DNA of 55,831 bases from Promethearchaeota archaeon (GTDB taxonomy: Archaea; Asgardarchaeota; Lokiarchaeia; Sigyniarchaeales; SOKP01), in the NCBI GenBank assembly GCA_004524365.1, contig SDNL01000001.1:1-55831 (forward strand). Direction: 5' to 3'. Positions 26,214 through 49,844 of this stretch are shown here, one piece after another. Within the stretch, counting starts at the first letter, position 1. The number at the start of each line of letters is the position of its first letter. Made by a program: the position numbers and the translations under genes. Below the pieces are notes generated by a model, which saw only the letters and a program-made list of their open reading frames with translations, did not search any database and was not told the DNA's origin.

Positions 26214-27773
26214 TTGCCCATCAAAGTCCTAATTGCTGAAGATTCTGCTTTTGTAAGAAAAAAAATTTCACAAATATTATCATCTAATAATTTAATAGAG
26301 GTTGTTGCAGCGGCAAAAAATGGAGAAGAAGCAGTCGAATTAACATTAAAGTATCTTCCCGATGTCCTAATCTTGGATCTATTAATGCCGAAGATGAATG
26401 GATTAGAAGCATTTAAGAGAATTATGAATGAATACACGGTTCCCACTATAATTTTATCTAGCATGGGACCTAGCAATTTAGATTCATCTATCCAAGCACT
26501 TATAATTGGTGCCTTTGATTATATAATGAAGCCGGGTACTCTTAAAGGGGAAAGTCTAACTCATTTCAAAGATATTTTAATTGATAAAGTAAAACTAGCA
26601 TCTAAATCCCACTTTAAAAGAGCAGATGATAAAAATGAGAAAAAATTTACCCAAATATCCCCCCGGCAAAAATTAGTCAATGAAATATTTGAATTTGGAC
26701 GATTTTTAAAAAAAATTGAGTCATCTGATAAGTCAAATTCAAAGACAAAACTCAAAAATATAGAAGATTTGAATTCAGTTCAAAAGAATGTCCCTCTTTC
26801 CGAATTTAAGCGTCATAAAAAGAATAAAAAAGAAAAAAAAAGAGTTCCAAAAAACATAGAAAAAGATTCTAAGGATGTAAAAAAACCTAAGAATAAAACA
26901 TCAATTAAGAATAAAAACGGGAAAAAGAAAGAATTATTAAAAAAAACCAAAACTTTTAAAGAAAGCGAAAACAATGCCAAAGAAAATAAGAATGGTAAAA
27001 GAAAATATGATAACTATTCTAAGTCTGTGAAGCAAACTTCAAAAGAAACTCCAATACTTAGTGGGAATTTAAAAAAATCTAATTTATACCCAGATCAAAT
27101 AAGTAAAGATATTAATTTAGAAAATAAAGATAAAAAAACATCTCTTACAGCGATTGATCTTCTCTCAAATAGAAATTTTCAAAAATCAAATATAAAAATA
27201 CATAGGAAATTAATAGTTATAGGTGCATCTGTGGGCGGCCCCCAAACAATTAAAACAATCCTAAAAAAACTCCCTAAGGATTATCCATTCCCAATTATCA
27301 TTGTGCAACATCTAAATTCAAAATTTATCAAACCATTTGCACAATCCATGGACGAATTATGTCCAATAAAGGTAAAGGTTGCTGAACACAATGAATTAAT
27401 AAAATCAAGTGTTGTATATATTGCCCCTGGAGAAAAGCATATTAAAGTATCCACAAAAAATCATTATCCAAGTATAAAAATATTTAATGATATTTCTATT
27501 AATTTTTGCAAACCTTCAATTGATATATTATTTATTTCGGCTTCACAAGTATATAAAAATCGGGTAGTAGGGATTTTACTAACAGGTATGGGTAAAGATG
27601 GGGTAAAAGGAATAAAATACATTTACAACAATAATGGATTTACGATATCTGAATCAGAAGAAACTGCTATTTTATATGGGATGCCAAAATTTGCAGTTGA
27701 AAAGGGTGTGGTAAACAAGAGCTTACCAATTGATAAAATTTCCGAATTACTAATTAGATATTCTAATACATAG
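26214..27773 (+). CDS. cheB: CheB methylesterase with receiver domain and an unusually long Lys-rich linker
   Basis: N-terminal REC domain (VLIAEDSAFVRK...LILDLLMPKMNG...). C-terminal esterase with GASVGGP (Ser), QHLN (His) and GMGKDG (Asp). About 200 aa of K/N/S-rich sequence lies between them. TTG start. Confidence 0.85.
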   Translation: MPIKVLIAEDSAFVRKKISQILSSNNLIEVVAAAKNGEEAVELTLKYLPDVLILDLLMPKMNGLEAFKRIMNEYTVPTIILSSMGPSNLDSSIQALIIGAFDYIMKPGTLKGESLTHFKDILIDKVKLASKSHFKRADDKNEKKFTQISPRQKLVNEIFEFGRFLKKIESSDKSNSKTKLKNIEDLNSVQKNVPLSEFKRHKKNKKEKKRVPKNIEKDSKDVKKPKNKTSIKNKNGKKKELLKKTKTFKESENNAKENKNGKRKYDNYSKSVKQTSKETPILSGNLKKSNLYPDQISKDINLENKDKKTSLTAIDLLSNRNFQKSNIKIHRKLIVIGASVGGPQTIKTILKKLPKDYPFPIIIVQHLNSKFIKPFAQSMDELCPIKVKVAEHNELIKSSVVYIAPGEKHIKVSTKNHYPSIKIFNDISINFCKPSIDILFISASQVYKNRVVGILLTGMGKDGVKGIKYIYNNNGFTISESEETAILYGMPKFAVEKGVVNKSLPIDKISELLIRYSNT

Positions 27774-27871
27774 CTATACAAAGTAAAGGAATTGAACGAT
27801 TTAAGATAAATCTCATATATATAACAAAAACATATGTTTTTAAGTATGTTCTATATTATTTTTGTAGAAAT

Positions 27872-29986
27872 ATGAGATACGAAATAATCGAAGGTGTTAA
27901 TATTATTCAACCCTTAGAAATGGATTCCGATATTTATGATAAAATCATTCTAAAATTGGAAACTGAGACTCATATCAAATTTAAGTATTATCAAAATAAT
28001 TATGTGATAAAAAGAATCAAATCAAGAATAAATTCTTTGAATTTATCTTCTGATGGAGCTTATTATGATTATTTAAAGAATCACCCAGATGAAATCGATC
28101 TTTTCTTAGATAATTTTACTATTAATTATTCTTACTTTTTTAGAAACTTTAACGTTTTTCAAGAAATAAAGAAATTGATAGAAAATGCGGGATTAACTCA
28201 ACAAGACACTATAAGAATATGGTCATGCCCTTGTGCTTCTGGTGAGGAGCCATATTCCTTGGCGATATTATTTGAAGAGTTAAAAAATGATAAGAAAAAT
28301 TTTCCTAATTATGAAATTATAGGTTCGGATATCAATCCAAACGCTATAAAAAAAGCAAGATTAGGAATTTACGGCGAACATGCTTTGAGTGAGATACCTG
28401 AAAAAATAAAGAAAAAGTACTTTGAAAGACTTTCAGAAAGTTCTTTAAAATATAAACTGATAAAAAAAATAAGAACTAAAGTAAGATTTATTAATGAAGA
28501 TATTACTTTAGGCCATCAAAAGTCTCAAAAATACGATATAATATTATGTAGAAACTTTATAATTTATATAGATAATATTTACCGAAAAGAACTCCTTAAG
28601 AATCTCAAAATGGTTTTAAAAGAGCAAGGTATATTAATACTAGGTAAAACCGAAAAAATTAGACAAGACAATGCTCTTGAAATCATTGATCCAATTAATC
28701 AATTTTATATCCATAATTCAGAAAATGTAAATGATAAATATCCATATAAATCTCTTTTATTTAAAAAAAATGAACAAAAAAGAATTTCAAAACCTCTAAA
28801 TCTAAAATTACAGAGTAGAGAATTCAAAACAAGAGAAAAATCAAATAAAAAACACCTACAAACAAGAAAAACTAAAAAACAAATTGAACAAAAGAGAGAG
28901 AAAAAGAATGATAAAAATGAAAATGATAATAAAAATTCAATAAAATTAATTAAACCTAATAAAGCCAAAGTCAAAAATGATAAAATTGTAGAATTAGAAC
29001 TAGAATCAGAACCCAATAAAACTACATATACATTAAATGAATTCAATGACAAATTTGCAAACCAAAAAATAAAAGGTTCTCAAGAAAAATTAGAAATCCA
29101 AGGTGAGTCTTCTGAACAAATCCAAGAGAATTTAAAAAAATTAAAAGAAAAGATTGATAAGGAAATCTTTTATCTTGACCAGCAGAGAGATGATTTAAAT
29201 AATAAAATATCAATTTTCCAAAAAAAACAAAAAGATTTTCAATTAGAAAAAGAACAATTTATTCGAAAAAAATTATTTTTTAAGCAACAAAAGAAACAAT
29301 ATGAAAAGGAATTAAAATGGTTTCAAAAACAAAAAAATCAGTTCGAGACTAATAGAGAACGATTTAAAGTTAAAAGAATTCAATTTTTAAAGGAGAAACG
29401 GAAATTTGAATCACGATTGCACAATAATAAAAAAAATAATGATAACATTAAAAAATTTGAAGAAAAAAAGAGATCTCTTAAGGAATATATATTACCTCTT
29501 GGGAGCCATATCTTACTTTCTCAAAATGATAATAGACTTGGAATAGGACTTTTAAGTTTATATGGGTTGGGAAGTAGCTATGTGTTAATTTTAGTTGATT
29601 CTGTTATCAAAGTATATAGCATGGCTCATATTTTATTTTCTAAACCAAAAAATAAAATACAAATGCCCGAGGAAGTATCAGCAATTGAAAAACCACATCA
29701 ATATGCTTCCCTATGTGTACCCTATTTGATAAAGAGAATGCTAGTGAAAGGGGCCTCAGAAAAAATGATCTCTGCTTATATTATTGGAGGTGCTCAGTTA
29801 TTCAATAAAAAATATGAGTCTATTATGGAAACTTATAATATTCTTAAAGAAAAATTGTCAGCATATAATATAGAACTTCTTAATTCAGATATAGGGGGAA
29901 AATCACGCCGTATGATAAAATATAACCTTAATGAAGAAAAATTATATTTAAGAACTGAGGATGAAAAATCCTTTAAACCCTTATAG
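27872..29986 (+). CDS. cheR: CheR methyltransferase fused, via a basic coiled-coil linker, to a CheD-like domain
   Basis: The N-terminal ~285 aa form a CheR domain (FFRN..., WSCPCASGEEPYSLAILF, ILCRNFIIY). The C-terminal ~170 aa align by eye to T. maritima CheD (GLGSSYVLIL..MAHILFS..IIGGAQLF..SDIGGKSRRMIKYNL..KLYLR). Confidence 0.8.
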   Translation: MRYEIIEGVNIIQPLEMDSDIYDKIILKLETETHIKFKYYQNNYVIKRIKSRINSLNLSSDGAYYDYLKNHPDEIDLFLDNFTINYSYFFRNFNVFQEIKKLIENAGLTQQDTIRIWSCPCASGEEPYSLAILFEELKNDKKNFPNYEIIGSDINPNAIKKARLGIYGEHALSEIPEKIKKKYFERLSESSLKYKLIKKIRTKVRFINEDITLGHQKSQKYDIILCRNFIIYIDNIYRKELLKNLKMVLKEQGILILGKTEKIRQDNALEIIDPINQFYIHNSENVNDKYPYKSLLFKKNEQKRISKPLNLKLQSREFKTREKSNKKHLQTRKTKKQIEQKREKKNDKNENDNKNSIKLIKPNKAKVKNDKIVELELESEPNKTTYTLNEFNDKFANQKIKGSQEKLEIQGESSEQIQENLKKLKEKIDKEIFYLDQQRDDLNNKISIFQKKQKDFQLEKEQFIRKKLFFKQQKKQYEKELKWFQKQKNQFETNRERFKVKRIQFLKEKRKFESRLHNNKKNNDNIKKFEEKKRSLKEYILPLGSHILLSQNDNRLGIGLLSLYGLGSSYVLILVDSVIKVYSMAHILFSKPKNKIQMPEEVSAIEKPHQYASLCVPYLIKRMLVKGASEKMISAYIIGGAQLFNKKYESIMETYNILKEKLSAYNIELLNSDIGGKSRRMIKYNLNEEKLYLRTEDEKSFKPL

Positions 29987-33494: not shown

Positions 33495-33809
33495 ATGGCA
33501 TTAGAGATAGGTGAACTAACAGGTCTCATCATGATTTCGGTGGCAGTCGTAATATTTATTATCTCAATGATTCTACAAAAATCATTGATTAAATATTTCC
33601 CTGGTATTATCTGTACCTGGTTTATCTTTCTATTTACAAATATAGAGGCACTTCCAGAGATTGCAACAGAATTGGCTGATTTATTTAACTTGTTTGAGCA
33701 TACATTCATTATGCTGTCCGCAATATGCTTCACTTTGGGAATTCTGTATGAATATTATTCCGGGTTTATTCGGAGTAAGCTTGATCATATGGCGAGAGGT
33801 GAAAAGTAA
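33495..33809 (+). CDS. Small three-helix membrane protein, or the detached N-terminal membrane part of the MCP
   Basis: Three hydrophobic helices. The stop lies 1 nt before the MCP ATG, and the MCP frame is also open across 33661..33810. Confidence 0.4.
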
Positions 33810-33810
33810 T

Positions 33811-34932
33811 ATGTTATTAATTGAAATAGTCGATTTAAGAGATGGAGGGCTTAATTTAATAGGAGTATTTTTCTTTATGATCGCTTTGATTTTAGCCTTG
33901 ATTCTCTATTATAGAGAACGAACCTTGACTCATATCTTTTTCTTCTTGATAATGTTTGGAGGTTTTATGTATGCTCTTGGAAATGTTTTAGATAAATGGG
34001 GTTTTTCGCAAGGAGAACTTATGTGGGATGTTATGGGTGAAACTTTTAGCATGTTTATGATCGCTTTGACGTTTGTTGTAGGGTTTGTTGATGTGCTAGA
34101 GGTACGAATTGAGCAGCATGAGCAAGATTTAGAAAGATTAATTGATCATGCGGAACAAACCGCTATTAATGTTGCAAATATATCAGCAGAATTAGAGGCT
34201 AGTGCAGAAGAGGTCGATAAAGCAATACATGGAGCAGATGATCACATCCATCAATTGGAAAAAGGAACATTAGGACAAGTTGAAGCGCTAAAAGAAGTAG
34301 AAAGACATGCAATATCTGTAGATGAGAATGCTCATGAGATTTTAGAACATACAGGAGATATTGATCAAGTAATGAAATTAATTGCTAGCATCTCGGAAGA
34401 AACAAACCTCTTAGCGTTAAACGCAAGTATTGAAGCAGGAAGGGCAGGAGAACACGGTAGGGGCTTTGCAGTAGTTGCTGATGAGGTCCGAAAGTTAGCG
34501 GAAGAATCAAGAAGTTCTGTTTCTCAATCTGGAGAAAAGATTCAATTTATAGAAAGACTAATTGAAACAACAGTCGAAGCAATAGATAATGTAACAAAGG
34601 AAATCCATGAAGCTGAAGAACACGAAGAGGAAAATGAGGTAGCATTGGAAGAGATTGAGGAAACTCTAGATCAACAAGTTGTTGCAATGGATGAAATTGT
34701 AGCAACCGCTCAGAGATTAGAATTGCTAGCAGAAGAATTGCAAGAAGAATTAGATATTCATAGAGGGGAAGAAGGAAAGAAAGCGATTCAAACTAAAAAG
34801 ACAAAACCTAGCCGACAGATAAAGACCGGAAAAAGCGAGAAGAAAGAACACAAACAGAGAATAAAAGTTGAGAAAGCAGAAATACCAGAAGAGGAAGTTA
34901 TAGAAAGCGAAAGTGTCATAAAGGTAGACTAA
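33811..34932 (+). CDS. Methyl-accepting chemotaxis protein (membrane-embedded sensor, short signalling domain)
   Basis: The canonical hairpin-tip motif [38 protein letters not shown]. About 4 N-terminal TM helices with very short loops. No recognisable HAMP domain or large extracytoplasmic domain. K/E-rich tail. I take the start at the ATG at 33811, in frame with listed ORF 33661..34932. Confidence 0.85.
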
Positions 34933-35021: not shown

Positions 35022-35840
35022 ATGATTGATATGAAAAAGTTTTCAAATATGAATAAACTACGAACAGGAAAGTCTCAATCCATATTAGGGTTTTGTATAT
35101 TAAAACTCGGGAATAATCAATCACTTAATGATTATGAATTGGTTTTTAAAAAAGGATTAAGAGACCCATTGATTCAAAATGTAATTGAATCAAATAAACA
35201 AGAAATTATGCAGAAGGAAAAAGGAAATTCAATCATTCCGCTAGATGAAGTTATGATTATTATTCACTTTTTTGAAGATTCCTATCAAAATAAAATTATT
35301 TTAATTTTTATGGACGATAAAGAGAGAGATATCAATTTTACTCAATTATACTTAATTTCAAAAGAAATTTTTAAAAAATTCAGTTCACAGATTAATCATA
35401 CTGAAATAAAAACATTTTGTAATGAAATAATAAAAATCCCTCAGAGTGAGGATCTTATTGGAATTTTTATTTTAAATCCCTCGGGAAGTCCTTATTTTAC
35501 AAAAATAAATAAGGAAAGGGCGGGTTTAGCTAATAAGGATGTACAAATTAGTGGATTTATTTCAGCAATCCTTACATTTTCAAAAGAGGTTATTTCACAA
35601 GATTCAGGAGGAAATTTAAAGGAAATCAATTTTGGAAATCAGAGGTTTTTTACAATTATCAGAAATAATGTAATATTTGCATATTTAGTTGAAAATGCAA
35701 ATAAATTATTTAAAAGATATATGCAAATCGTAGTTGATGAGTTTTTCAGCTCGTATAAGAAAGAGTTAGAACAATACAATGGAGATATTTCTCCGTTCAA
35801 AGGTTTTGAAAATACATTAAACAAATACTTTAAAATATAG
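35022..35840 (+). CDS. Tandem Roadblock/longin-like domain protein (tentative)
   Basis: Two alpha/beta-looking halves. The second (LIGIFILNPSGSPYFTK...ISGFISAILTFSKEV...LKEINFGNQRFFTIIRNNVIFAYLVE) fits the Roadblock/longin-type pattern. It ends 6 nt before cheW. Confidence 0.45.
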   Translation: MIDMKKFSNMNKLRTGKSQSILGFCILKLGNNQSLNDYELVFKKGLRDPLIQNVIESNKQEIMQKEKGNSIIPLDEVMIIIHFFEDSYQNKIILIFMDDKERDINFTQLYLISKEIFKKFSSQINHTEIKTFCNEIIKIPQSEDLIGIFILNPSGSPYFTKINKERAGLANKDVQISGFISAILTFSKEVISQDSGGNLKEINFGNQRFFTIIRNNVIFAYLVENANKLFKRYMQIVVDEFFSSYKKELEQYNGDISPFKGFENTLNKYFKI

Positions 35841-35846
35841 AAATAT

Positions 35847-36431
35847 GTGATTAAAAAAATGCAAAAAAATATTTATGAGAAAGAAAACATTTCAATTATT
35901 ATTTTTAATGTGGGCTGGGAAGAATTCGCGATCGATCTCTTAGATGTTAAAGAAATTATACAGGCAGGACAAGTAAGAAAACTTCCAAAAAGTATGGATT
36001 TTATCGATGGAATTTATAACTATCGCGGGGAAATCATCCACATTATTAATTTACGTAAAAAACTTAATTTGGATGAGTATAAATTATATAGATCCAAAAA
36101 GGAATTATATGAAAGTAAAAAAGAGGGAGAAACTGTTAGTGAAGAGCAAATAGGAGGTTCTAATGGGGGGACAGCAAAAAAATATATAATAATTGTTAAT
36201 GTTGATAACAAAAATATTGGATTTTATGCTGATAAAATTCATAATGTTTCTCAAATTAACAAGAGCGATATTATAGACCTCACTCCTATATTTCAAACAA
36301 GCGTGGATGTTAATTATATTAAAGGGGTTATTCGATTTGAGGATCGACCTCGAATCCTAATAAATCTTAGTAAAGTATTAACCGAAGCCGAAGCTCAAAT
36401 GATTCAAAAAGAATTAGATTCAAGAAAATAA
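35847..36431 (+). CDS. cheW: CheW coupling protein (with a ~35-aa insertion)
   Basis: FAIDLLDVKEIIQ...P......GIYNYRGEIIHIINLRKKL and a C-terminal IKGVIRFEDRPRILINL. GTG start; an ATG lies at 35859. Confidence 0.8.
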   Translation: MIKKMQKNIYEKENISIIIFNVGWEEFAIDLLDVKEIIQAGQVRKLPKSMDFIDGIYNYRGEIIHIINLRKKLNLDEYKLYRSKKELYESKKEGETVSEEQIGGSNGGTAKKYIIIVNVDNKNIGFYADKIHNVSQINKSDIIDLTPIFQTSVDVNYIKGVIRFEDRPRILINLSKVLTEAEAQMIQKELDSRK

Positions 36432-36446
36432 AATAAAAAAAAAGAG

Positions 36447-36845
36447 TTGATAAATTATATGCCAGAAAAGAAAAAAATACTTGTTGTAGATGATGCAGCC
36501 TTCACTCGTAATATGCTTAAAAAGATAATAGATAATGCAGACTATACAAAGGTAGTTGGAGAGGCATCAGATGGAAACGAAGCAATAAAACTTTACAAGC
36601 AGTTAAAACCTGATTTAGTTACGATGGATCTGGTCATGCCAGTTAAAGGTGGTATTGAAACAATAGAAGAAATTAAAAAATTTGATGATGGTGCCTTAAT
36701 CATCTGTGTATCTGCATTAGGTCAGGAAGCATTAGTACTAGAGGCTGCAAAAAAAGGGGCAAAGGATTTTATCCAAAAACCTTTTAAGAGCGATCAAGTA
36801 ACAGAAGTTCTAGAACGTACACTCCTAAATAATAAAGGCCATTAA
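36447..36845 (+). CDS. cheY: CheY response regulator
   Basis: KILVVDDAAF, DLVTMDLVMP (phospho-Asp), VSALG and IQKPF. A single REC domain of ~125 aa. TTG listed; ATG at 36459. Confidence 0.9.
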   Translation: MINYMPEKKKILVVDDAAFTRNMLKKIIDNADYTKVVGEASDGNEAIKLYKQLKPDLVTMDLVMPVKGGIETIEEIKKFDDGALIICVSALGQEALVLEAAKKGAKDFIQKPFKSDQVTEVLERTLLNNKGH

Positions 36846-36867
36846 AAATTGAAGGTGAAAATTAGCA

Positions 36868-38976
36868 ATGTCATCAAAAGAAGATAAAGATTTTAAACTA
36901 TTTGTGAAAGAAGCAGAAGAATTAATAAGAAAGATCGAAGAGAGTATATTAAATCTTGAAGAAAATTTTAAAAACAATGATCCTGTAGAACAACTTTACT
37001 TTTCATATCATAATCTTAAAGGAATGACTGGAATGGTTGGATTTGACAATTTCTCAAAACTTTGTCACAGCTTAGAAAATCTGTTAGACGAGATTAAGGA
37101 TTATGAAAAACGTGCAGAAAATAAAGGTCAATTGATTGGGTTATTATTTGAAAGTCATGATGTAATGAGAAATCTTATAAAGAAAATAAAAGAAAGCGAT
37201 AAAGAGGATTTAAATCGACAGATTTTAAAGGAATTCGAGAAGAGAATAAACAATCTAAAAACATCAACCACCACCAGTGATTATGATATTACCTTCTTTA
37301 AACCTCTTTCTAAGGAAGAATTTGAAAAAATTACTTCAAAAAGCAATTATAAATTTTTCAAGGTTTATATTGAAATTCAAGATACTTGTGTATTTAAGAA
37401 AGTAAGACTTTTCATCATCTTTCGTGCATTAGATGAGATTGGAAGGATATGTTCAAGCAGTCCGGAGCCAACTGTGTTAGAAAAGGGTGCGATAGATAAT
37501 GATTTCGAAATCTATTTTATGACGAAGGAATCTAAAAATGTGATATCTCATAGAATAGATGAAATCTTAGAAATAGAAAGCCGGAAAATAACGGAGATAA
37601 GTTCTGATGAATTTTATAATTTGATTAGCGAATATTGCGAAAAAATGCTTGATCAAATGGAAGGAAATAGTCTCCCTACAGAAGAATATTCTATTGACAG
37701 TACCCAAGAAAGTACAGTATCTTCTGTAATTGCGGACAACTTTGACGATCAGAATAAAATTACTTCAATTAAAGTAGATATTCAGACCTTGGAAACCCTT
37801 ATGGATTATTTCGGTGAGTTAGTAATCTTAAAAAATCAAATGTCCCAGATTCTCCAAAAAAATAGGGAAAGAGAAGGATCAAGATTATTTGATGACATGG
37901 ATAAACTTTTTTTAGAAATTCAAGAAATTATTTTTCAACTAAAACTTGTAAGAGTTGAAAAAACATTCCGACGATATCGAAGATTGGTTAGAGATGTTGC
38001 AAAGGAGACAGGAAAACAAATAAAATTTGTTCTAAAAGGATTAGATGTTGAAATAGATAGAAAGGTATTAGAAGAACTAAATAGTCCTTTAATTCATCTT
38101 CTAAGAAATGCCATATATCATGGGATTGAAAGTCCAGAAGAAAGAAATAAAAAGAATAAGGATATAGTTGGTACTTTAAGACTTGAATCCTATAGAAAGG
38201 CTGGATCAATATATATTAAAGTAAAAGATGATGGAAGAGGGTTAAATTATGAAGGAATTAGACGAAAAGCTATTAGAAATGGAATGTACTCACCTGAAGA
38301 GGCTGGAAAATTAACTAATGAACAACTTGAAAAAATTATTTTCCGCTCGGGCTTTTCGACACTTAGAGGAGCAGATCAGATATCTGGAAGAGGAATGGGT
38401 TTGGCGATTGTTTCAGAAAAGGTGGAAGAATTAGGTGGATCTGTAGAAGTTAACTCTGTAGAAGAGAAAGGAACAGAATTTATTTTAGATGTTCCCTTTA
38501 CAAGAGCGATCTTAAAAGCACAGATATTTTCAGTTGGGGGGGATCTATATGCTATTCCCATTGAAAATATAAAACAGATATACTTTTACAAAAGGGAAAA
38601 TCTGGATTATATAAAAGGAGTTGAACATTATAGACTTGATTCTGAATTGGTTCCACTAATTCGAGTGGACGAATATCTTGGTCTCTCTTCAGCTACTAAT
38701 AGTAATGAATTCTCTCTCGAAAAGTCTAACTCCTCCACAAAAATCGCAATTTGGTGTAAAAAGGATGAAGAAAATTCTGCAGTATTAGTAGTGGATGAAA
38801 TTTTACAACAAATGGAGGTTGTGATTAAGCCCTTTAAATCAAAATATTCTAAATTCCGTTCTGTTTTAGGTGTCACTATAACAGGAAGAGGAAAGATCTG
38901 TATGGTAATGGATGTAATGGATCTCATCTCTTCAATATCTAGAGAAGTTACAAAATCAATTAGTATCTCAAACTAA
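36868..38976 (+). CDS. cheA: CheA histidine kinase
   Basis: Hpt motif YHNLKGMTGMVGF (His codon 37009..37011), a dimerisation region, the HATPase domain (HLLRNAIYHGIE, DDGRGL, GRGMGLAIV) and a C-terminal CheW-like P5 domain. Confidence 0.9.
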   Translation: MSSKEDKDFKLFVKEAEELIRKIEESILNLEENFKNNDPVEQLYFSYHNLKGMTGMVGFDNFSKLCHSLENLLDEIKDYEKRAENKGQLIGLLFESHDVMRNLIKKIKESDKEDLNRQILKEFEKRINNLKTSTTTSDYDITFFKPLSKEEFEKITSKSNYKFFKVYIEIQDTCVFKKVRLFIIFRALDEIGRICSSSPEPTVLEKGAIDNDFEIYFMTKESKNVISHRIDEILEIESRKITEISSDEFYNLISEYCEKMLDQMEGNSLPTEEYSIDSTQESTVSSVIADNFDDQNKITSIKVDIQTLETLMDYFGELVILKNQMSQILQKNREREGSRLFDDMDKLFLEIQEIIFQLKLVRVEKTFRRYRRLVRDVAKETGKQIKFVLKGLDVEIDRKVLEELNSPLIHLLRNAIYHGIESPEERNKKNKDIVGTLRLESYRKAGSIYIKVKDDGRGLNYEGIRRKAIRNGMYSPEEAGKLTNEQLEKIIFRSGFSTLRGADQISGRGMGLAIVSEKVEELGGSVEVNSVEEKGTEFILDVPFTRAILKAQIFSVGGDLYAIPIENIKQIYFYKRENLDYIKGVEHYRLDSELVPLIRVDEYLGLSSATNSNEFSLEKSNSSTKIAIWCKKDEENSAVLVVDEILQQMEVVIKPFKSKYSKFRSVLGVTITGRGKICMVMDVMDLISSISREVTKSISISN

Positions 38977-42146: not shown

Positions 42147-43004
42147 ATGAATTATCAATATTACAAAACATTAATGGACAAATCTGAGGAGAATTTATTT
42201 TTCTTAATTGAGAAAATAGTACCTGCACCTTTAAAGGAAGAATTAGGTCTTTTTTTAGAAGGATTTAACCTTGGAAAAATTAAAAAATCTTCTCTTGAAG
42301 AGAATTTTATTCAGATTAATCCATTAAACAAAAATTATGCTGACTTATCTAAACTCAATTCCCAACAATTAAAGGAAATATACGAAACTTTCATTAGTAG
42401 AGAAAAAAACGATAAAAAGGCGGTAAAATGGAGATTGCTCCGGTATTTGAGAATTCAAAAAGATATACAATTAGAAACACTTCACATTAATGTTGATATG
42501 AATGAAGATAATGCAGTGGATATAATCTTCGAAACTAAAAATCATAAGTATTACTTTATAAATTGTAGTTATATTCTAGAAAAGGAATATTATTACAATT
42601 TAATAGAAAAACTTATCGCCTTTTCTAAAAAAATTAACCTTAAACCTGAAAAAATCGTATTTTCTGCTCATAAAACCTATAGAGATATTCCTTATAAAGA
42701 AGATATTCAAGTAGGTAATATAAAATATGAGATAGAAAAAGAAATCTGGGTAGAATGGACAGAATTAGAAAAACCTTTTAATGGGGAAGATCTTCTTCTA
42801 ATCCTGAGTAATAATGAAAAAGATTTAGAACTTGCGGGATTTAATTTTACCAGCATCCAAACATTGTTGGATTATGTGTATAGATATTCTAAAGGAGGAC
42901 AAATTGCTATATATAAACAGCCTGGGTTTTTCTCGGCAAAAAGTAATGAAAATCCTCAAATTGAATTAATTTGGAAAGGAATTATGTTAAAAAATAAAAT
43001 TTAA
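42147..43004 (+). CDS. Hypothetical protein between cheA and cheC (CheF-like role possible but not recognised)
   Basis: A 285-aa ORF with a Shine-Dalgarno motif and tight operon spacing. I could identify no motif. Confidence 0.45.
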   Translation: MNYQYYKTLMDKSEENLFFLIEKIVPAPLKEELGLFLEGFNLGKIKKSSLEENFIQINPLNKNYADLSKLNSQQLKEIYETFISREKNDKKAVKWRLLRYLRIQKDIQLETLHINVDMNEDNAVDIIFETKNHKYYFINCSYILEKEYYYNLIEKLIAFSKKINLKPEKIVFSAHKTYRDIPYKEDIQVGNIKYEIEKEIWVEWTELEKPFNGEDLLLILSNNEKDLELAGFNFTSIQTLLDYVYRYSKGGQIAIYKQPGFFSAKSNENPQIELIWKGIMLKNKI

Positions 43005-44977: not shown

Positions 44978-45088
44978 TATAATGAAGCATTTATTTCCAA
45001 TGAAAAAGTAGCTTAAAAATCTTTATTTTTTTATCAATTTTATTAGAAATTACAATTAAATAATCCAAAAATATCATGAAAAAATAAC

Positions 45089-45613
45089 ATGCCAAATATT
45101 AAATATAGAGAAAAAATATTTCAAGTGGTTGGAGAAAATATAAAGCCAAATCCAAAAACCATTTTTAATCCTGAGGAAGTTTATCTATTTATTGATGAAA
45201 ACCTTAATGTGATATGGATCTGGGCTGGTGAGAAATCAAAACTATTTCATAGATACATTGCATCCTCATGGGCTGGTAAATTAAAGAGTAAAAAACAGTA
45301 TTTTAATTACAATTATGAACTTGTGAAACAAGGAAGGGAACCAAAAAAATTCAAAGTAATTATTGATGAAGTAGAAGAAGGAAGATCAGATCTGAATTAT
45401 CCCGGAGAATCTAGGACTCTTGAAATTAGTGTCAAATCCAAATCTAAAAATGATTTACATTCAAATCGATATTCACAAAAAATACCAAATAAAAAGGTTG
45501 CTAAAATTACAGCCATTCTCTCTGAAGTTCAAGAAATGCAAAGTCATATTAGATATTCTCTAGAACATATAGGAAAGCGCATTAGAAAGATAGATGAAAT
45601 TTTGAATAGTTAA
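45089..45613 (+). CDS. Single gelsolin-domain protein with C-terminal helical tail
   Basis: FQVVGENIKP......EVYLFIDENLNVIWIWAGEKSKLFHRYIASSWAGKLKS....ELVKQGREPKKF follows the gelsolin-repeat pattern (l..v.g....v...l.s.d.yiLd....iy.W.G..as..e...a...a..l......i..v.eg.Ep..F). Confidence 0.55.
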   Translation: MPNIKYREKIFQVVGENIKPNPKTIFNPEEVYLFIDENLNVIWIWAGEKSKLFHRYIASSWAGKLKSKKQYFNYNYELVKQGREPKKFKVIIDEVEEGRSDLNYPGESRTLEISVKSKSKNDLHSNRYSQKIPNKKVAKITAILSEVQEMQSHIRYSLEHIGKRIRKIDEILNS

Positions 45614-46674: not shown

Positions 46675-48756
46675 TTGATGCCAATAAAGATGAATAAAAA
46701 AATTAACGCCGTGAAAGCCAAGTTTATTAATCCAATAAAAGAACTTAGTATTCCAACTTTCATTATTGACTCAAATCATAACGTAATTGAATGGAATAAA
46801 GCCATTAAGAACTTGACAGGAGTAAGGCGAAAGGAGATACTTGGCACTTCTAATGCTTGGAAGGCCTTTTATTCAGAAAAGCGCCCTACTTTAGCAGATC
46901 TCTTACTGGATGGAAAGATAGAAGAGATAGAAACATATTTTCAAAACTTTTCAAAGGCAAAGCATTGTCTTAGAGGTTATACTGCTGAGAAATGGCTTGA
47001 AATAAATTATGAGAGATTATATCTTATCATGACTGCTACCGCAATTCTGGATAAAAAAGGGGAGATCATTCAAATTATACAAACAATTGAAGATAGGACA
47101 GAATCAAAACATATAAAGGATAGAAAAGAGTTTTTAAATTCAATATTTCGGCATGATGCAAATAATATGATAAATGTATGCCACGGGTTTCTCAAATTAT
47201 TGGAAAAAACTGAATTAACAGAAGTGCAGAAGGACTATCTTCAAGAAGCTATTAATGCTTCGCGTGGAGTAATCAGCATCATTGAAAAAGTAAGTAAACT
47301 TCAAAAAGTTGGAAGGGAAGAGACTCAAGACCTGTCATTAGGGGATTTAATTCAAGAAATTGTAAATAAAAATCAATTCCAAGCAAAGGAAAAAGGTATT
47401 ACGATTGAAGTATGTCTTCCAGAATTTAGCTCAAATGTCCAAGCAGGGGAATTGCTTGAAGATGTGTTTATTAATATAATTGGAAATTCATTGCAACATA
47501 GTCAATGCGACAAAATTAAAATCTCGGGAAGAGAAAGTAAGGATGCAATTATTTGTTGTATTGAAGATAATGGAAAGGGAATAAAAGAAGAAGATAAAGA
47601 AATGATATTTAATCAAGGATTTAAGAGAGGAAAAAGTGCTGGATCAGGATTGGGGTTATTTCTTGTTAAAAAGATTACTAATAATTATGGGGCGAAAGTT
47701 TATGTAAAGGATTCTCAACTTGGTGGTGTGAAATTCGAAGTTCAATTAAAGAAGAGTAAAGGAAGACCAGAAAAAAGAAGAAATTCATTATCTCAAATTG
47801 AAAATGATTTTCATCTCACAGAAGATTCTTTACTTAATAATGAACATCATCTCCAAAATTTAATTGTTGTGGTCGATGATAATTTACAATTTTTAACCTA
47901 TATGAAAGTTTTACTAGAAAATTATGATTACAAAGTGGAAACTTTTAGAAGTGCTGTAAATGCCTTATCATATATTGAAAATCAGGACTATCACTCTATT
48001 CCTGATCTTATTATTTCTGATATACGCATGCCAGAACTCTCAGGATATGAATTCTTTAAGAATCTTTCTTCTAATCCAAAATTAAATCGCATTCCTTTTA
48101 TATTCCTTTCTGGGTTGAGCTCGAAGGATGATATTAGATTAGGAAAATATCTTGGAGCTGATGATTATATTACCAAACCGGTTTATGAAGAAGATATCCT
48201 TGCTTCGATTAAAGGAAAACTCCGTAGAAAAAAAGCAGGGAGCGTGTTTGAAACGGAAATTGATAAATATTTAAATTTAGAACAAAAGCGAGACAATAAA
48301 CTTGAAAATATGAAGTTTGATGAGGAAATCGTTCTTTTTTTGATATTTTGGGATGATAAAAAAGGTCCAAAATTAATTGAACAATATCCTGAGAAAAGCA
48401 GAATTTCACTTTCTGTTGATAAACTTGGTACTCAAATATTTCAAGCAATCGTTCCAATATATGGGCAATCAAAAAATATTGTAAATGCGGAAGATGTATT
48501 ATTTAGAATCGAAAATATCAATAAACATGCGTATCTTTACTTTGATGCATTTTATGATGAGTCAAAGCGATCTAAACAGACAGAATTTATGCTTTCAGTA
48601 ATCGCTCCAACGATAAGTTATTTTGAATCATTAAAATTAAAAAAAATATTATCTAATCTCTCAAATATATTAAAAGAAGATAACGACACGAAAAAAATAA
48701 ATTTCAGGCAGTATTGGAAAGACATTTTAGGCATTTTAAGTAAATTTGAAAATTAA
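46675..48756 (+). CDS. Hybrid sensor kinase: PAS - HisKA - HATPase - REC - extra C-terminal alpha/beta domain (longin/Roadblock-like, tentative)
   Basis: H-box FRHDANNMINV, N-box NIIGNSLQHS, G-boxes EDNGKGI / GSGLGLFLVKKI. REC domain (VVVDDN...LIISDIRMPELSGY...ITKPV). The final ~150 aa (IVLFLIFWDDKKGPKLIEQYPE...) have no kinase-related motif. TTG listed; ATG at 46678. Confidence 0.8.
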   Translation: MMPIKMNKKINAVKAKFINPIKELSIPTFIIDSNHNVIEWNKAIKNLTGVRRKEILGTSNAWKAFYSEKRPTLADLLLDGKIEEIETYFQNFSKAKHCLRGYTAEKWLEINYERLYLIMTATAILDKKGEIIQIIQTIEDRTESKHIKDRKEFLNSIFRHDANNMINVCHGFLKLLEKTELTEVQKDYLQEAINASRGVISIIEKVSKLQKVGREETQDLSLGDLIQEIVNKNQFQAKEKGITIEVCLPEFSSNVQAGELLEDVFINIIGNSLQHSQCDKIKISGRESKDAIICCIEDNGKGIKEEDKEMIFNQGFKRGKSAGSGLGLFLVKKITNNYGAKVYVKDSQLGGVKFEVQLKKSKGRPEKRRNSLSQIENDFHLTEDSLLNNEHHLQNLIVVVDDNLQFLTYMKVLLENYDYKVETFRSAVNALSYIENQDYHSIPDLIISDIRMPELSGYEFFKNLSSNPKLNRIPFIFLSGLSSKDDIRLGKYLGADDYITKPVYEEDILASIKGKLRRKKAGSVFETEIDKYLNLEQKRDNKLENMKFDEEIVLFLIFWDDKKGPKLIEQYPEKSRISLSVDKLGTQIFQAIVPIYGQSKNIVNAEDVLFRIENINKHAYLYFDAFYDESKRSKQTEFMLSVIAPTISYFESLKLKKILSNLSNILKEDNDTKKINFRQYWKDILGILSKFEN

Positions 48757-48908: not shown

Positions 48909-49844
48909 TTGATTCAAACTATGAAAAGTCTAAAGCTAATAATTGCAGGTTTAGATTATGCTGGGAAGACAAGTTCCATTATTGCTCTTAGAGAAAAATA
49001 TAATTTTTACGAAAAAGTGGAAAATTTGAAGCCCACGGTCAAGATTGAATATAGTAGTTTCAACTTTCTCAATCAATGGGAAGTTAATATTTGGGATATG
49101 GGTGGACAAGAGAAGTATAGACAAATTTATTTAGATAAACCAGAATATTTCGCAGATACAAATTATTTCTATTATTATATTGATATTCAAGATGAAAAAA
49201 AGATCTCCGAATCAATTAATTATTTTGAAGAATTATTAACAATTTTGAAAGATTTTAATTATTCTAATAAAATAATAATCTGTTTTCACAAATATGACCC
49301 AAAATTAAGAAGAAATAAAGATATTCTTGAAAGAATTACAAGTGTAAAGAAAAAACTTAAACAAAATGAACATTTTGAGTTTAAATTCTTTAGAACTTCA
49401 ATTTTTGATATTTCAACTCTTTCTAAAGCAATCTCATATTCATTAAATAGCTTAATTGATTTTAGTGTTTTAAAGCTAATTTTAAAGGGATTAATTCGAA
49501 AATTTAATGGAAATTATGCAATTTTATATACTGATTCAGGTGTGATACTTGTTGATTTTTATAAAGAAATTTTAGATTCGATTGAATATGAAGAGAAAGT
49601 ACGTCAATCAATTAACCGTGACCTTGTACTCATTCAAAAATTGAAGGATGATAATGTTGAATTCAATGAACGAGTAGATTATGATGAAGAGATTAAATAT
49701 TTAAAAAAATATGAGATTGGGGACAATATTTTCTTTCTAAAGATGAACGCTCCAAAAATGAGAGAGGAAAAAATACAATTATTGAAAAATAACTTTCAAA
49801 ATTTCGAAAACGACCTCCAAGAGATATTTTCAAATAATTCGTAA
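48909..49844 (+). CDS. Rag/Gtr-like (Arf-related) small GTPase with C-terminal Roadblock-like domain
   Basis: G1 GLDYAGKTS, G2 PTV, G3 WDMGGQEKYR (49092..49109). G4 is HKYD (49287..49298), the HKxD variant characteristic of Rag/Gtr GTPases rather than NKxD. The C-terminal ~125 aa (GNYAILYTDSGVILVDFYKE...) look Roadblock-like. The 311 aa length is close to eukaryotic RagA. TTG listed; ATG at 48921. Confidence 0.65.
   Translation: MIQTMKSLKLIIAGLDYAGKTSSIIALREKYNFYEKVENLKPTVKIEYSSFNFLNQWEVNIWDMGGQEKYRQIYLDKPEYFADTNYFYYYIDIQDEKKISESINYFEELLTILKDFNYSNKIIICFHKYDPKLRRNKDILERITSVKKKLKQNEHFEFKFFRTSIFDISTLSKAISYSLNSLIDFSVLKLILKGLIRKFNGNYAILYTDSGVILVDFYKEILDSIEYEEKVRQSINRDLVLIQKLKDDNVEFNERVDYDEEIKYLKKYEIGDNIFFLKMNAPKMREEKIQLLKNNFQNFENDLQEIFSNNS

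Follow-up and report, generated by a model that had tools for sequence, protein, structure and literature searches.

Introduction

The described proteins nearest to the one considered here are small gelsolins of Asgard archaea. Among them 1DGelX, which has one gelsolin domain and a coiled coil, binds actin with a dissociation constant (Kd) of 7.7 µM, nucleates it and severs it, and does so independently of Ca2+ (PMC7444086). Lokiarchaeia have been reported to possess both a lokiactin cytoskeleton and chemoreceptor arrays, and L. ossiferum in particular carries che genes, putative chemoreceptor arrays and eight gelsolin-like genes (PMC9834061). The canonical output of archaeal chemotaxis runs from phosphorylated CheY (CheY~P) through CheF to ArlCDE and the archaellum (PMC9680633). 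Fusions of Roadblock domains with GTPases have been described (PMC10933270), and published surveys report few conserved neighbourhoods of eukaryotic signature proteins (ESPs). Here we describe Gel, a protein of 174 amino acids (aa) with a gelsolin domain, whose gene holds a fixed place in the chemosensory (che) gene cluster of a Promethearchaeota archaeon of the class Lokiarchaeia. The DNA analysed, hereafter the window, is the 55,831-nucleotide (nt) stretch formed by positions 1 to 55,831 of contig SDNL01000001.1 (assembly GCA_004524365.1, forward strand), an archaeal fragment of 30% G+C from a sediment metagenome.

Asgard gelsolins, lokiactin filaments and chemoreceptor arrays are each known, and no paper connecting them was found in the literature searched. 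That literature, which is incomplete so that earlier publication is possible, also held no mention of a che-linked gelsolin. In the bacterium Myxococcus, the Che-type phosphorelay Frz acts together with the Ras-like GTPase MglA and the Roadblock protein MglB, and its output is polarity and motility, not a rotary motor.

Results

The Gel open reading frame (ORF) starts with ATG, ends with TAA and encodes a basic protein with a predicted isoelectric point (pI) of 9.6 (Table 1). An initial annotation of the window had placed the ORF at these coordinates and quoted a peptide resembling the gelsolin repeat. Both are present in the sequence, and the resemblance was borne out by phmmer, by a family profile and by an AlphaFold2 (AF2) model compared using Foldseek, all of which agree. 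With Gel as query against all PDB chains, phmmer returned gelsolin-family proteins exclusively at E ≤ 1.4e-3, among them Heimdall 2DGel (7whf, 1.8e-6), Thor ProGel (7c2f, 1.6e-5) and CapG (1.9e-4), with further matches to Thor 2DGel3 and Loki 2DGel. A family profile, A1, was made from 28 full-length orthologues of 41–76% identity; against PDB it matched 7c2f at 5.8e-10 and CapG at 3e-7, with villin, adseverin and gelsolin weaker. Pfam family PF00626 did not reach the Gel of the window itself, and 10 of the 28 orthologues match it at E < 0.1 (best 5.7e-6). Pfam and NCBIfam scans of Gel gave nothing usable, the sole match being one to DUF4998 (0.0065) that fell under the cut-off.

The AF2 model has a mean predicted local distance difference test (pLDDT) score of 81.5, with values of 84–96 per 10-residue block across residues 1–110. 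Its elements (strands 10–14, 17–20, 31–36 and 41–46, helix 52–66, strand 75–80 and helix 86–97) follow the gelsolin-domain order of strand, long helix, strand and helix, and the central beta-sheet lies between the long and the shorter helix, as in the gelsolin/cofilin fold. Foldseek gave 72 PDB matches at E ≤ 1e-3; the 50 matches listed are, without exception, domains of the gelsolin family or fusions containing a gelsolin domain. Actin-bound ProGel (7c2f_B) ranks first, with an E value of 6e-7, a template modelling (TM) score of 0.76 (target-normalised) and a root-mean-square deviation of 1.9 Å over 79 columns. A gelsolin fold, on which the initial annotation had made its assignment depend, is thus predicted. 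By three independent lines, namely sequence, profile and structure model, residues 10–98 of Gel are a gelsolin domain.

We then placed Gel in its genomic setting. In the window, 111 nt separate the stop of a cheW-cheC-cheC fusion gene (cheW-cheC2) from Gel, and 59 nt separate Gel from the gene of a Roadblock-Ras GTPase. The initial annotation had each spacer one nucleotide too long (112 and 60 nt) and was right that all three genes share the + strand. Seven loci from orthologues at 43–76% identity all show cheA, a gene of about 1000 aa, one of about 285 aa, cheW-cheC2 and Gel, in that order. A scan of one genome per species with peptide patterns added 29 loci, from metagenome-assembled genomes (MAGs) labelled Promethearchaeota, Hodarchaeota, Hermodarchaeota or plain uncultured archaeon; no match was named L. 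ossiferum or P. syntrophicum, an absence that a peptide-pattern scan does not prove. In tblastn searches with the window proteins, the fusion gene lay directly 5' of Gel in each scanned locus having upstream DNA. In total, Gel immediately follows the cheW-cheC-cheC fusion in at least 43 distinct loci, identified from either gene, having non-identical spacers and both genes complete, and spanning 33–79% identity. In the reverse test, metagenomes were scanned with A3, an alignment made from the fusion protein; this gave 17 loci with full-length homologues, and Gel was the next gene in 14 of the 14 that had at least 600 bp downstream of the fusion. The sole exception is locus L065 (1–1229), where 674 nt, apparently non-coding and lacking any sizeable + strand ORF, precede Gel up to the contig end; its downstream side is intact, with cheD, cheC, the GTPase gene and cheB after Gel.

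The conserved order is g272, cheW, cheY, cheA, the gene of a 1040-aa coiled-coil/DUF11 protein, g285, cheW-cheC2, Gel, in most relatives cheR-cheB-cheD-cheC, and the Roadblock-Ras GTPase gene. In the lineage of the window (L001, L005 and L009–L012) the GTPase gene comes directly after Gel. In about 20 loci Gel is followed by cheR-cheB-cheD-cheC and only then by the Roadblock-Ras and receiver proteins, so that it sits amid che genes, and in a few a Na+/Ca2+ exchanger gene is next. The GTPase gene lies less than about 4 kb from Gel in most relatives. The most divergent che-type members (P0045 and L058) still lie inside a che cluster. Divergence of Gel correlates with that of the fusion (r 0.90), g285 (0.89), CheA (0.88) and the GTPase (0.91), which fits inheritance as one unit. 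Co-conservation with che genes, on whose absence the initial annotation would have given up its proposal, therefore holds in both directions and across divergent genomes, which makes Gel a constant member of a chemosensory gene cluster of the Lokiarchaeia type.

Gel belongs to a compact family that can be told apart from its closest paralogues. An exhaustive search of 1.84 billion representative sequences with the Gel family profile gave 16 full-length members at E ≤ 1e-30, followed at about 1e-13 by a second family (P0054, P0055, P0057, P0058 and P0062; about 171–187 aa) with the same plan of gelsolin domain, linker and helix, which the profile covers over positions 10–167 of 173. The motif PG[EQ]SR is present in 29 of 38 che-type proteins and in none of 12 paralogues, and the median pI is 9.4 in the former versus 5.3 in the latter. 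In one MAG, GCA_019058515.1, the paralogue adjoins a FIST-domain gene and the che-linked copy sits in the che cluster. Because this genome also encodes a paralogue outside the che cluster, of different charge and without the motif, the che-linked family can be regarded as specialised. The same comparisons make the C-terminal helix an ancestral trait of the two families; what sets the che-linked one apart is its motif, its charge and some helix residues. An acidic paralogue of 171 aa stands directly upstream of a FIST-domain (sensory) gene in L040 (8001–8516) and L041 (506–1021), and this pair may represent a second small gelsolin coupled to a signalling protein.

Within Gel, the most conserved element is the long helix 52–66, LFHRYIASSWAGKLK, with a mean column conservation of 0.91 versus 0.72 for the whole domain; together with the IWIWxG strand (IWIWAG in Gel) it forms the most conserved surface, in the region aligned to ProGel. 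This helix retains the L-F...A-x-K-L pattern common to Gel and ProGel, and it carries H54, R55, Y56 and W61, near-invariant within the che-linked subfamily. In the DLNYPGESR motif that follows the domain, P105, G106, S108 and R109 are invariant in the orthologue alignment. Ten hydrophobic residues of the C-terminal helix share one a/d register, and E146, E149, H153, Y156, S157, H160 and R164 are conserved there.

The initial annotation had suggested control by Ca2+. In HMMER alignments the type II Ca2+ ligand position, seven residues past the Gly of the W-x-G strand, is Asp in domain 1 and Glu in domain 2 of 2DGel, versus H54 in Gel and Lys in ProGel, so that Gel lacks the acidic ligand of the Ca-regulated gelsolins (2DGel, gelsolin G1/G2). 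In human gelsolin G2 numbering (G186, D187, E209, D259), Val31 of Gel falls at the D187 ligand position and H54 at E209. These residues are 96% and 93% conserved, respectively, among Gel orthologues. According to Akil et al. 2020, Ca sites are absent from one-domain Asgard gelsolins, and Asgard gelsolins of the 2DGel type are Ca-regulated (PMC7444086). Because H54 and Val31 occupy the ligand positions, and in view of that report, we do not expect canonical Ca2+ regulation of Gel and rejected this part of the proposal as unlikely. A Na+/Ca2+ exchanger gene adjoins the gelsolin or the GTPase gene in several relatives (L003 11218–12444, L005 11577–12602, L007 10775–11818), although the domain has no canonical Ca2+ ligand.

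Transcription of Gel together with cheC, as the initial annotation implied, is doubtful. The spacer before Gel is the longest of the cluster, with a median of 102 nt (range 33–195, 43 loci) versus medians of 27–53 nt for the other cluster spacers. Runs of six or more T occur in 34 of 43 pre-Gel spacers, versus a mean of 8.7 and a maximum of 15 in 200 shuffles, and runs of eight or more in 19 of 43 (shuffle mean 1.6). Elsewhere in the cluster such runs are enriched between cheA and the DUF11 gene (15/32), lie within shuffle expectation between Gel and cheR (4/13), and are lacking from most of the remaining spacers. Oligo-T tracts are a known intrinsic termination signal for archaeal RNA polymerase. 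The 111-nt spacer of the window has no Rfam match and an unremarkable fold (z -0.49), and across relatives nothing in the spacer sequence is conserved except the T run. Spacers between Gel and the GTPase gene measure 6–59 nt, and in L009 the two genes overlap. Because the pre-Gel spacer is the longest, is enriched in oligo-T, and oligo-T signals termination in archaea, we set aside plain co-transcription in favour of a separate downstream unit. The spacer is probably a full or partial transcript boundary, with a terminator-type signal ahead of an A/T-rich promoter region, and Gel probably heads the downstream transcript, together with the GTPase gene in the window's lineage. T-run enrichment at two spacers suggests that transcription divides the cluster into three units.

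Around Gel, Pfam scans of the window revealed a complete chemosensory system with housekeeping genes on its flanks (Table 1); a gene for a PAS histidine kinase is also part of the set. The E-x2-N motifs are invariant in the alignment of the cheW-cheC2 fusion. The Roadblock-Ras GTPase matches Rab12, Rab7 and a Thor Rab in PDB at E 1e-18 to 1e-20. The AF2 model of g285 is good (pLDDT 87, predicted TM score 0.85); in a Foldseek search of the PDB even the top match, a nuclease-like subdomain, was not significant (E 0.08), and a sequence-profile search gave no match. For g272, the first gene of the conserved cluster, Pfam gave no match and the dynein LC7 (Roadblock) profile a non-significant one (E 0.37); its C-terminal half reads like a Roadblock or longin domain. 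The 1040-aa protein, present in every che cluster of this type, appears cytoplasmic, with a long SMC-like coiled-coil stretch ahead of its DUF11 repeats; a hydrophobic segment was looked for in it and none was found. Pfam-A scans, run at E ≤ 1 for seven ORFs including Gel and g285 and at E ≤ 0.001 for the rest including g272, gave no match of any window ORF to CheF (PF04283) or to an archaellum family.

The cheR-cheD gene is a single one of 704 aa here and is represented by separate genes in most relatives, and in CheB (519 aa) an unusually long linker separates the receiver and methylesterase domains. The protein encoded at 46675–48756 has PAS, HisKA, HATPase and receiver domains, beyond which it extends at the C-terminus by about 150 aa that match nothing in Pfam. 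A motif of that extension, FLIFWDDKKGPKLIEQYPE, weakly resembles the C-terminal domain of P0089 (BLASTP E 0.003, 39 aa), a protein that joins this domain to a gelsolin domain. At 48909–49844 there follows the gene of a Gtr1/RagA-like (Rag/Gtr) GTPase.

Table 1. Gel, its parts and the neighbouring chemosensory genes in the window
Feature	Position	Strand	Evidence and remarks
che-linked gelsolin-domain gene Gel	45089..45613	+	ORF; 28 full-length orthologues, 41-76% identity; AF2 mean pLDDT 81.5
Gelsolin domain, residues 10-98	45116..45382	+	PDB sequence and profile matches; best Foldseek match 7c2f (ProGel/actin)
DLNYPGESR motif, residues 101-109	45389..45415	+	Near-invariant; modelled as ordered, pLDDT about 89; che-linked subfamily only
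Linker, residues 111-133; variable, basic, predicted disordered	45419..45487	+	pLDDT <50 for residues 114-133; column conservation 0.33; length differs among orthologues
C-terminal amphipathic heptad helix, residues 134-173	45488..45607	+	AF2 helix, pLDDT 81-88
Spacer between cheW-cheC2 and Gel	44978..45088	+	Longest spacer of the cluster; T7 run at 45026-45032; T runs enriched
cheW-cheC-cheC fusion gene, 647 aa	43034..44977	+	Invariable upstream neighbour of Gel; Pfam CheW 2e-19, CheC 2.9e-41 in four stretches; NCBIfam CheC 3.5e-67
Roadblock-Ras/Rab-like small GTPase, 317 aa	45673..46626	+	Pfam Robl_LC7 8e-6 (N-terminus), Ras 2.7e-31
g285	42147..43004	+	Asgard-only family, 151 homologues; in every case flanked by the DUF11 protein gene and cheW-cheC2
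Coiled-coil and DUF11-repeat protein, 1040 aa	39012..42134	+	Pfam DUF11 5e-14; SMC-like coiled-coil matches; synteny
g272 (35022-35840), cheW (35847-36431), cheY (36447-36845), cheA (36868-38976)	35022..38976	+	Pfam; order kept in relatives
Membrane-bound methyl-accepting chemotaxis protein (MCP)	33661..34932	+	Pfam MCPsignal 1.8e-29; hydrophobic N-terminal segments
cheB (26214-27773) and cheR-cheD fusion (27872-29986)	26214..29986	+	Pfam; directly downstream of Gel in most relatives

Discussion

The recurrence of Gel at one fixed point of the che cluster in many Lokiarchaeia-like archaea suggests, short of proof, that the Asgard group, the archaea most closely related to eukaryotes, ties a bacterial-style sensory pathway to an actin cytoskeleton. 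The reading that we favour, with a probability of about 0.45, is that Gel is a one-domain gelsolin of the ProGel/1DGelX kind in the output branch of the Che system and acts on actin. Whereas the fold, the subfamily and the gene position are shown by the analysis, actin binding is inferred, from the conservation of the long helix and from the relatives of Gel, and so is a coupling to CheY~P or to the GTPase. The gelsolin domain would bind lokiactin through the long helix 52–66, in the manner of ProGel and gelsolin G1 on actin, and canonical Ca2+ control would play no part. As suggested for domain X of 1DGelX, the heptad helix at the C-terminus may dimerise Gel or contact the side of the filament, and the DLNYPGESR motif with the basic linker could link the protein to acidic signalling partners encoded alongside. 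Gel would start its own transcript, shared with the Roadblock-Ras GTPase in the window and with cheR-cheB-cheD-cheC and the GTPase in most relatives. Signalling by CheA and CheY, set by the CheC phosphatase fusion, would then alter local capping, severing or bundling of actin filaments, either directly or via the small GTPase, and the outcome might be steering of protrusion growth or of cell polarity.

A number of observations weigh against this reading. ProGel binds actin very weakly (Kd 337 µM), and gelsolin-fold domains with non-actin partners exist, such as Sec23 (PMC7444086). Archaellum genes have been reported from L. ossiferum, so that the Che output may be conventional. No actin gene was seen in the window or in the retrieved loci of relatives. 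Fusions of gelsolin with Che or receiver domains were absent from 78 longer relatives, whose domains were Gelsolin, DUF7904, MPK1_gelsolin_C, VHP, LRR and similar. The C-terminal helix is also found in the non-che paralogues and is not a che-specific docking element, and the oligo-T spacer speaks against simple co-transcription with cheC. In a look-up of sequencing runs the window was found only in sediment DNA metagenomes and Gel in no RNA run. A stronger form of the proposal, that Gel and the Roadblock-Ras GTPase are a dedicated Che output through which chemical stimuli remodel eukaryote-type actin for directed protrusion growth or polarity, is somewhat less likely.

Of the alternatives, the one that survives best assigns Gel a structural role: the protein would fasten the chemosensory array, or else the phosphatase CheW-CheC2, to actin filaments or set its place on them, with the Che system controlling something else, such as an archaellum. 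Such a tether would be comparable to the placement of bacterial arrays by systems of the ParA/ParP or PpfA type. Gel always adjoins an array-type protein (the CheW-domain fusion), a small protein with a coiled-coil helix suits a linker, and chemoreceptor arrays as well as archaellum machinery have been reported from L. ossiferum. We nonetheless consider the role unlikely: Gel appears transcriptionally separated from cheW-cheC2 and grouped with adaptation enzymes and the GTPase, and the Pfam scans brought up neither CheF nor an archaellum family among the window ORFs.

Somewhat less likely still is a repurposed fold, in which the domain no longer binds actin and has become a che-specific module for CheY~P, the CheC fusion, g285 or the Roadblock-Ras GTPase. 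Sec23 and other non-actin gelsolin-like domains (PMC7444086) provide the precedent, and the features that paralogues lack (H54, R55, Y56 and W61, DLNYPGESR, and a basic pI of 9.4 versus acidic neighbours) speak for it as well. The nearest relatives by sequence and structure are, to the contrary, actin-bound Asgard gelsolins, and the long helix retains the L-F...A-x-K-L pattern of ProGel. That Gel has no functional link to the system and is kept as a neighbour by chance or by shared regulation alone is very improbable: a probable promoter of its own, a terminator-type signal upstream and the lack of Che-gelsolin fusions are consistent with it, but adjacency persists in at least 43 loci down to 33% identity despite downstream rearrangement, the reverse test is 14 of 14, a paralogue lies elsewhere in the same genome, and the one exception (L065) falls at a contig end.

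If Gel and the GTPase do serve as the Che output, the actin-based chemotaxis of eukaryotes would have a precursor or an analogue in this prokaryotic system. Within a prokaryotic two-component chemosensory system the cluster holds an actin-regulator fold of eukaryotic type and a GTPase of the Ras family, and it thereby offers a testable handle on what the che genes control and on how signals regulate the actin cytoskeleton, both of which matter for models of eukaryogenesis. It also defines a set of proteins for joint study, namely Gel, CheW-CheC2, g285, g272, the DUF11 coiled-coil protein and the Roadblock-Ras GTPase.

Among described proteins, Thor ProGel (7C2F; PMC7444086) is the best profile and structure match of Gel. 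In each, a single gelsolin/cofilin-type domain has no acidic Ca2+ ligand past the W-x-G strand. The ProGel chain, about 90 aa long, consists of this domain alone, whereas Gel adds the DLNYPGESR motif, the basic linker and a 40-residue C-terminal helix, and it has a che context, none being described for ProGel. The Asgard 1DGelX of Akil et al. 2020 resembles Gel in outline, with a coiled coil after its gelsolin domain where Gel has a heptad helix that may correspond to it, and 1DGelX is the most likely biochemical model for Gel. The two differ in size: 1DGelX runs near actin on gels and is hence much larger, whereas the helix of Gel has only about 40 residues. Two relatives with long coiled coils, P0075 (470 aa) and P0127 (396 aa), are probably of the 1DGelX type; compared by length and outline only, the single heptad helix of Gel is far shorter than the coiled coils of these putative counterparts. 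The non-che paralogues have the plan of gelsolin domain, linker and C-terminal helix in common with Gel but are acidic, lack PGESR and lie beside a FIST-domain gene.

At the level of the pathway, the cluster shares with canonical archaeal chemotaxis the core of CheA, CheW, CheY, CheB, CheR, CheC, CheD and MCP. Where CheF and archaellum matches are lacking from the Pfam scans of the window, it has g272, the DUF11 protein, g285, CheW-CheC2, Gel and the Roadblock-Ras GTPase. The proposed logic would be nearer to that of Myxococcus, in which Frz acts on MglA/MglB, than to the route from CheY through CheF to the archaellum. As with Frz and MglAB, a Che pathway, a Ras-like GTPase and a Roadblock domain are encoded together in the window, a likeness of co-encoding only and thus an analogy. 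In the Asgard cluster the Roadblock domain is fused to the GTPase, and the cytoskeletal partner would be an actin regulator of eukaryotic type.

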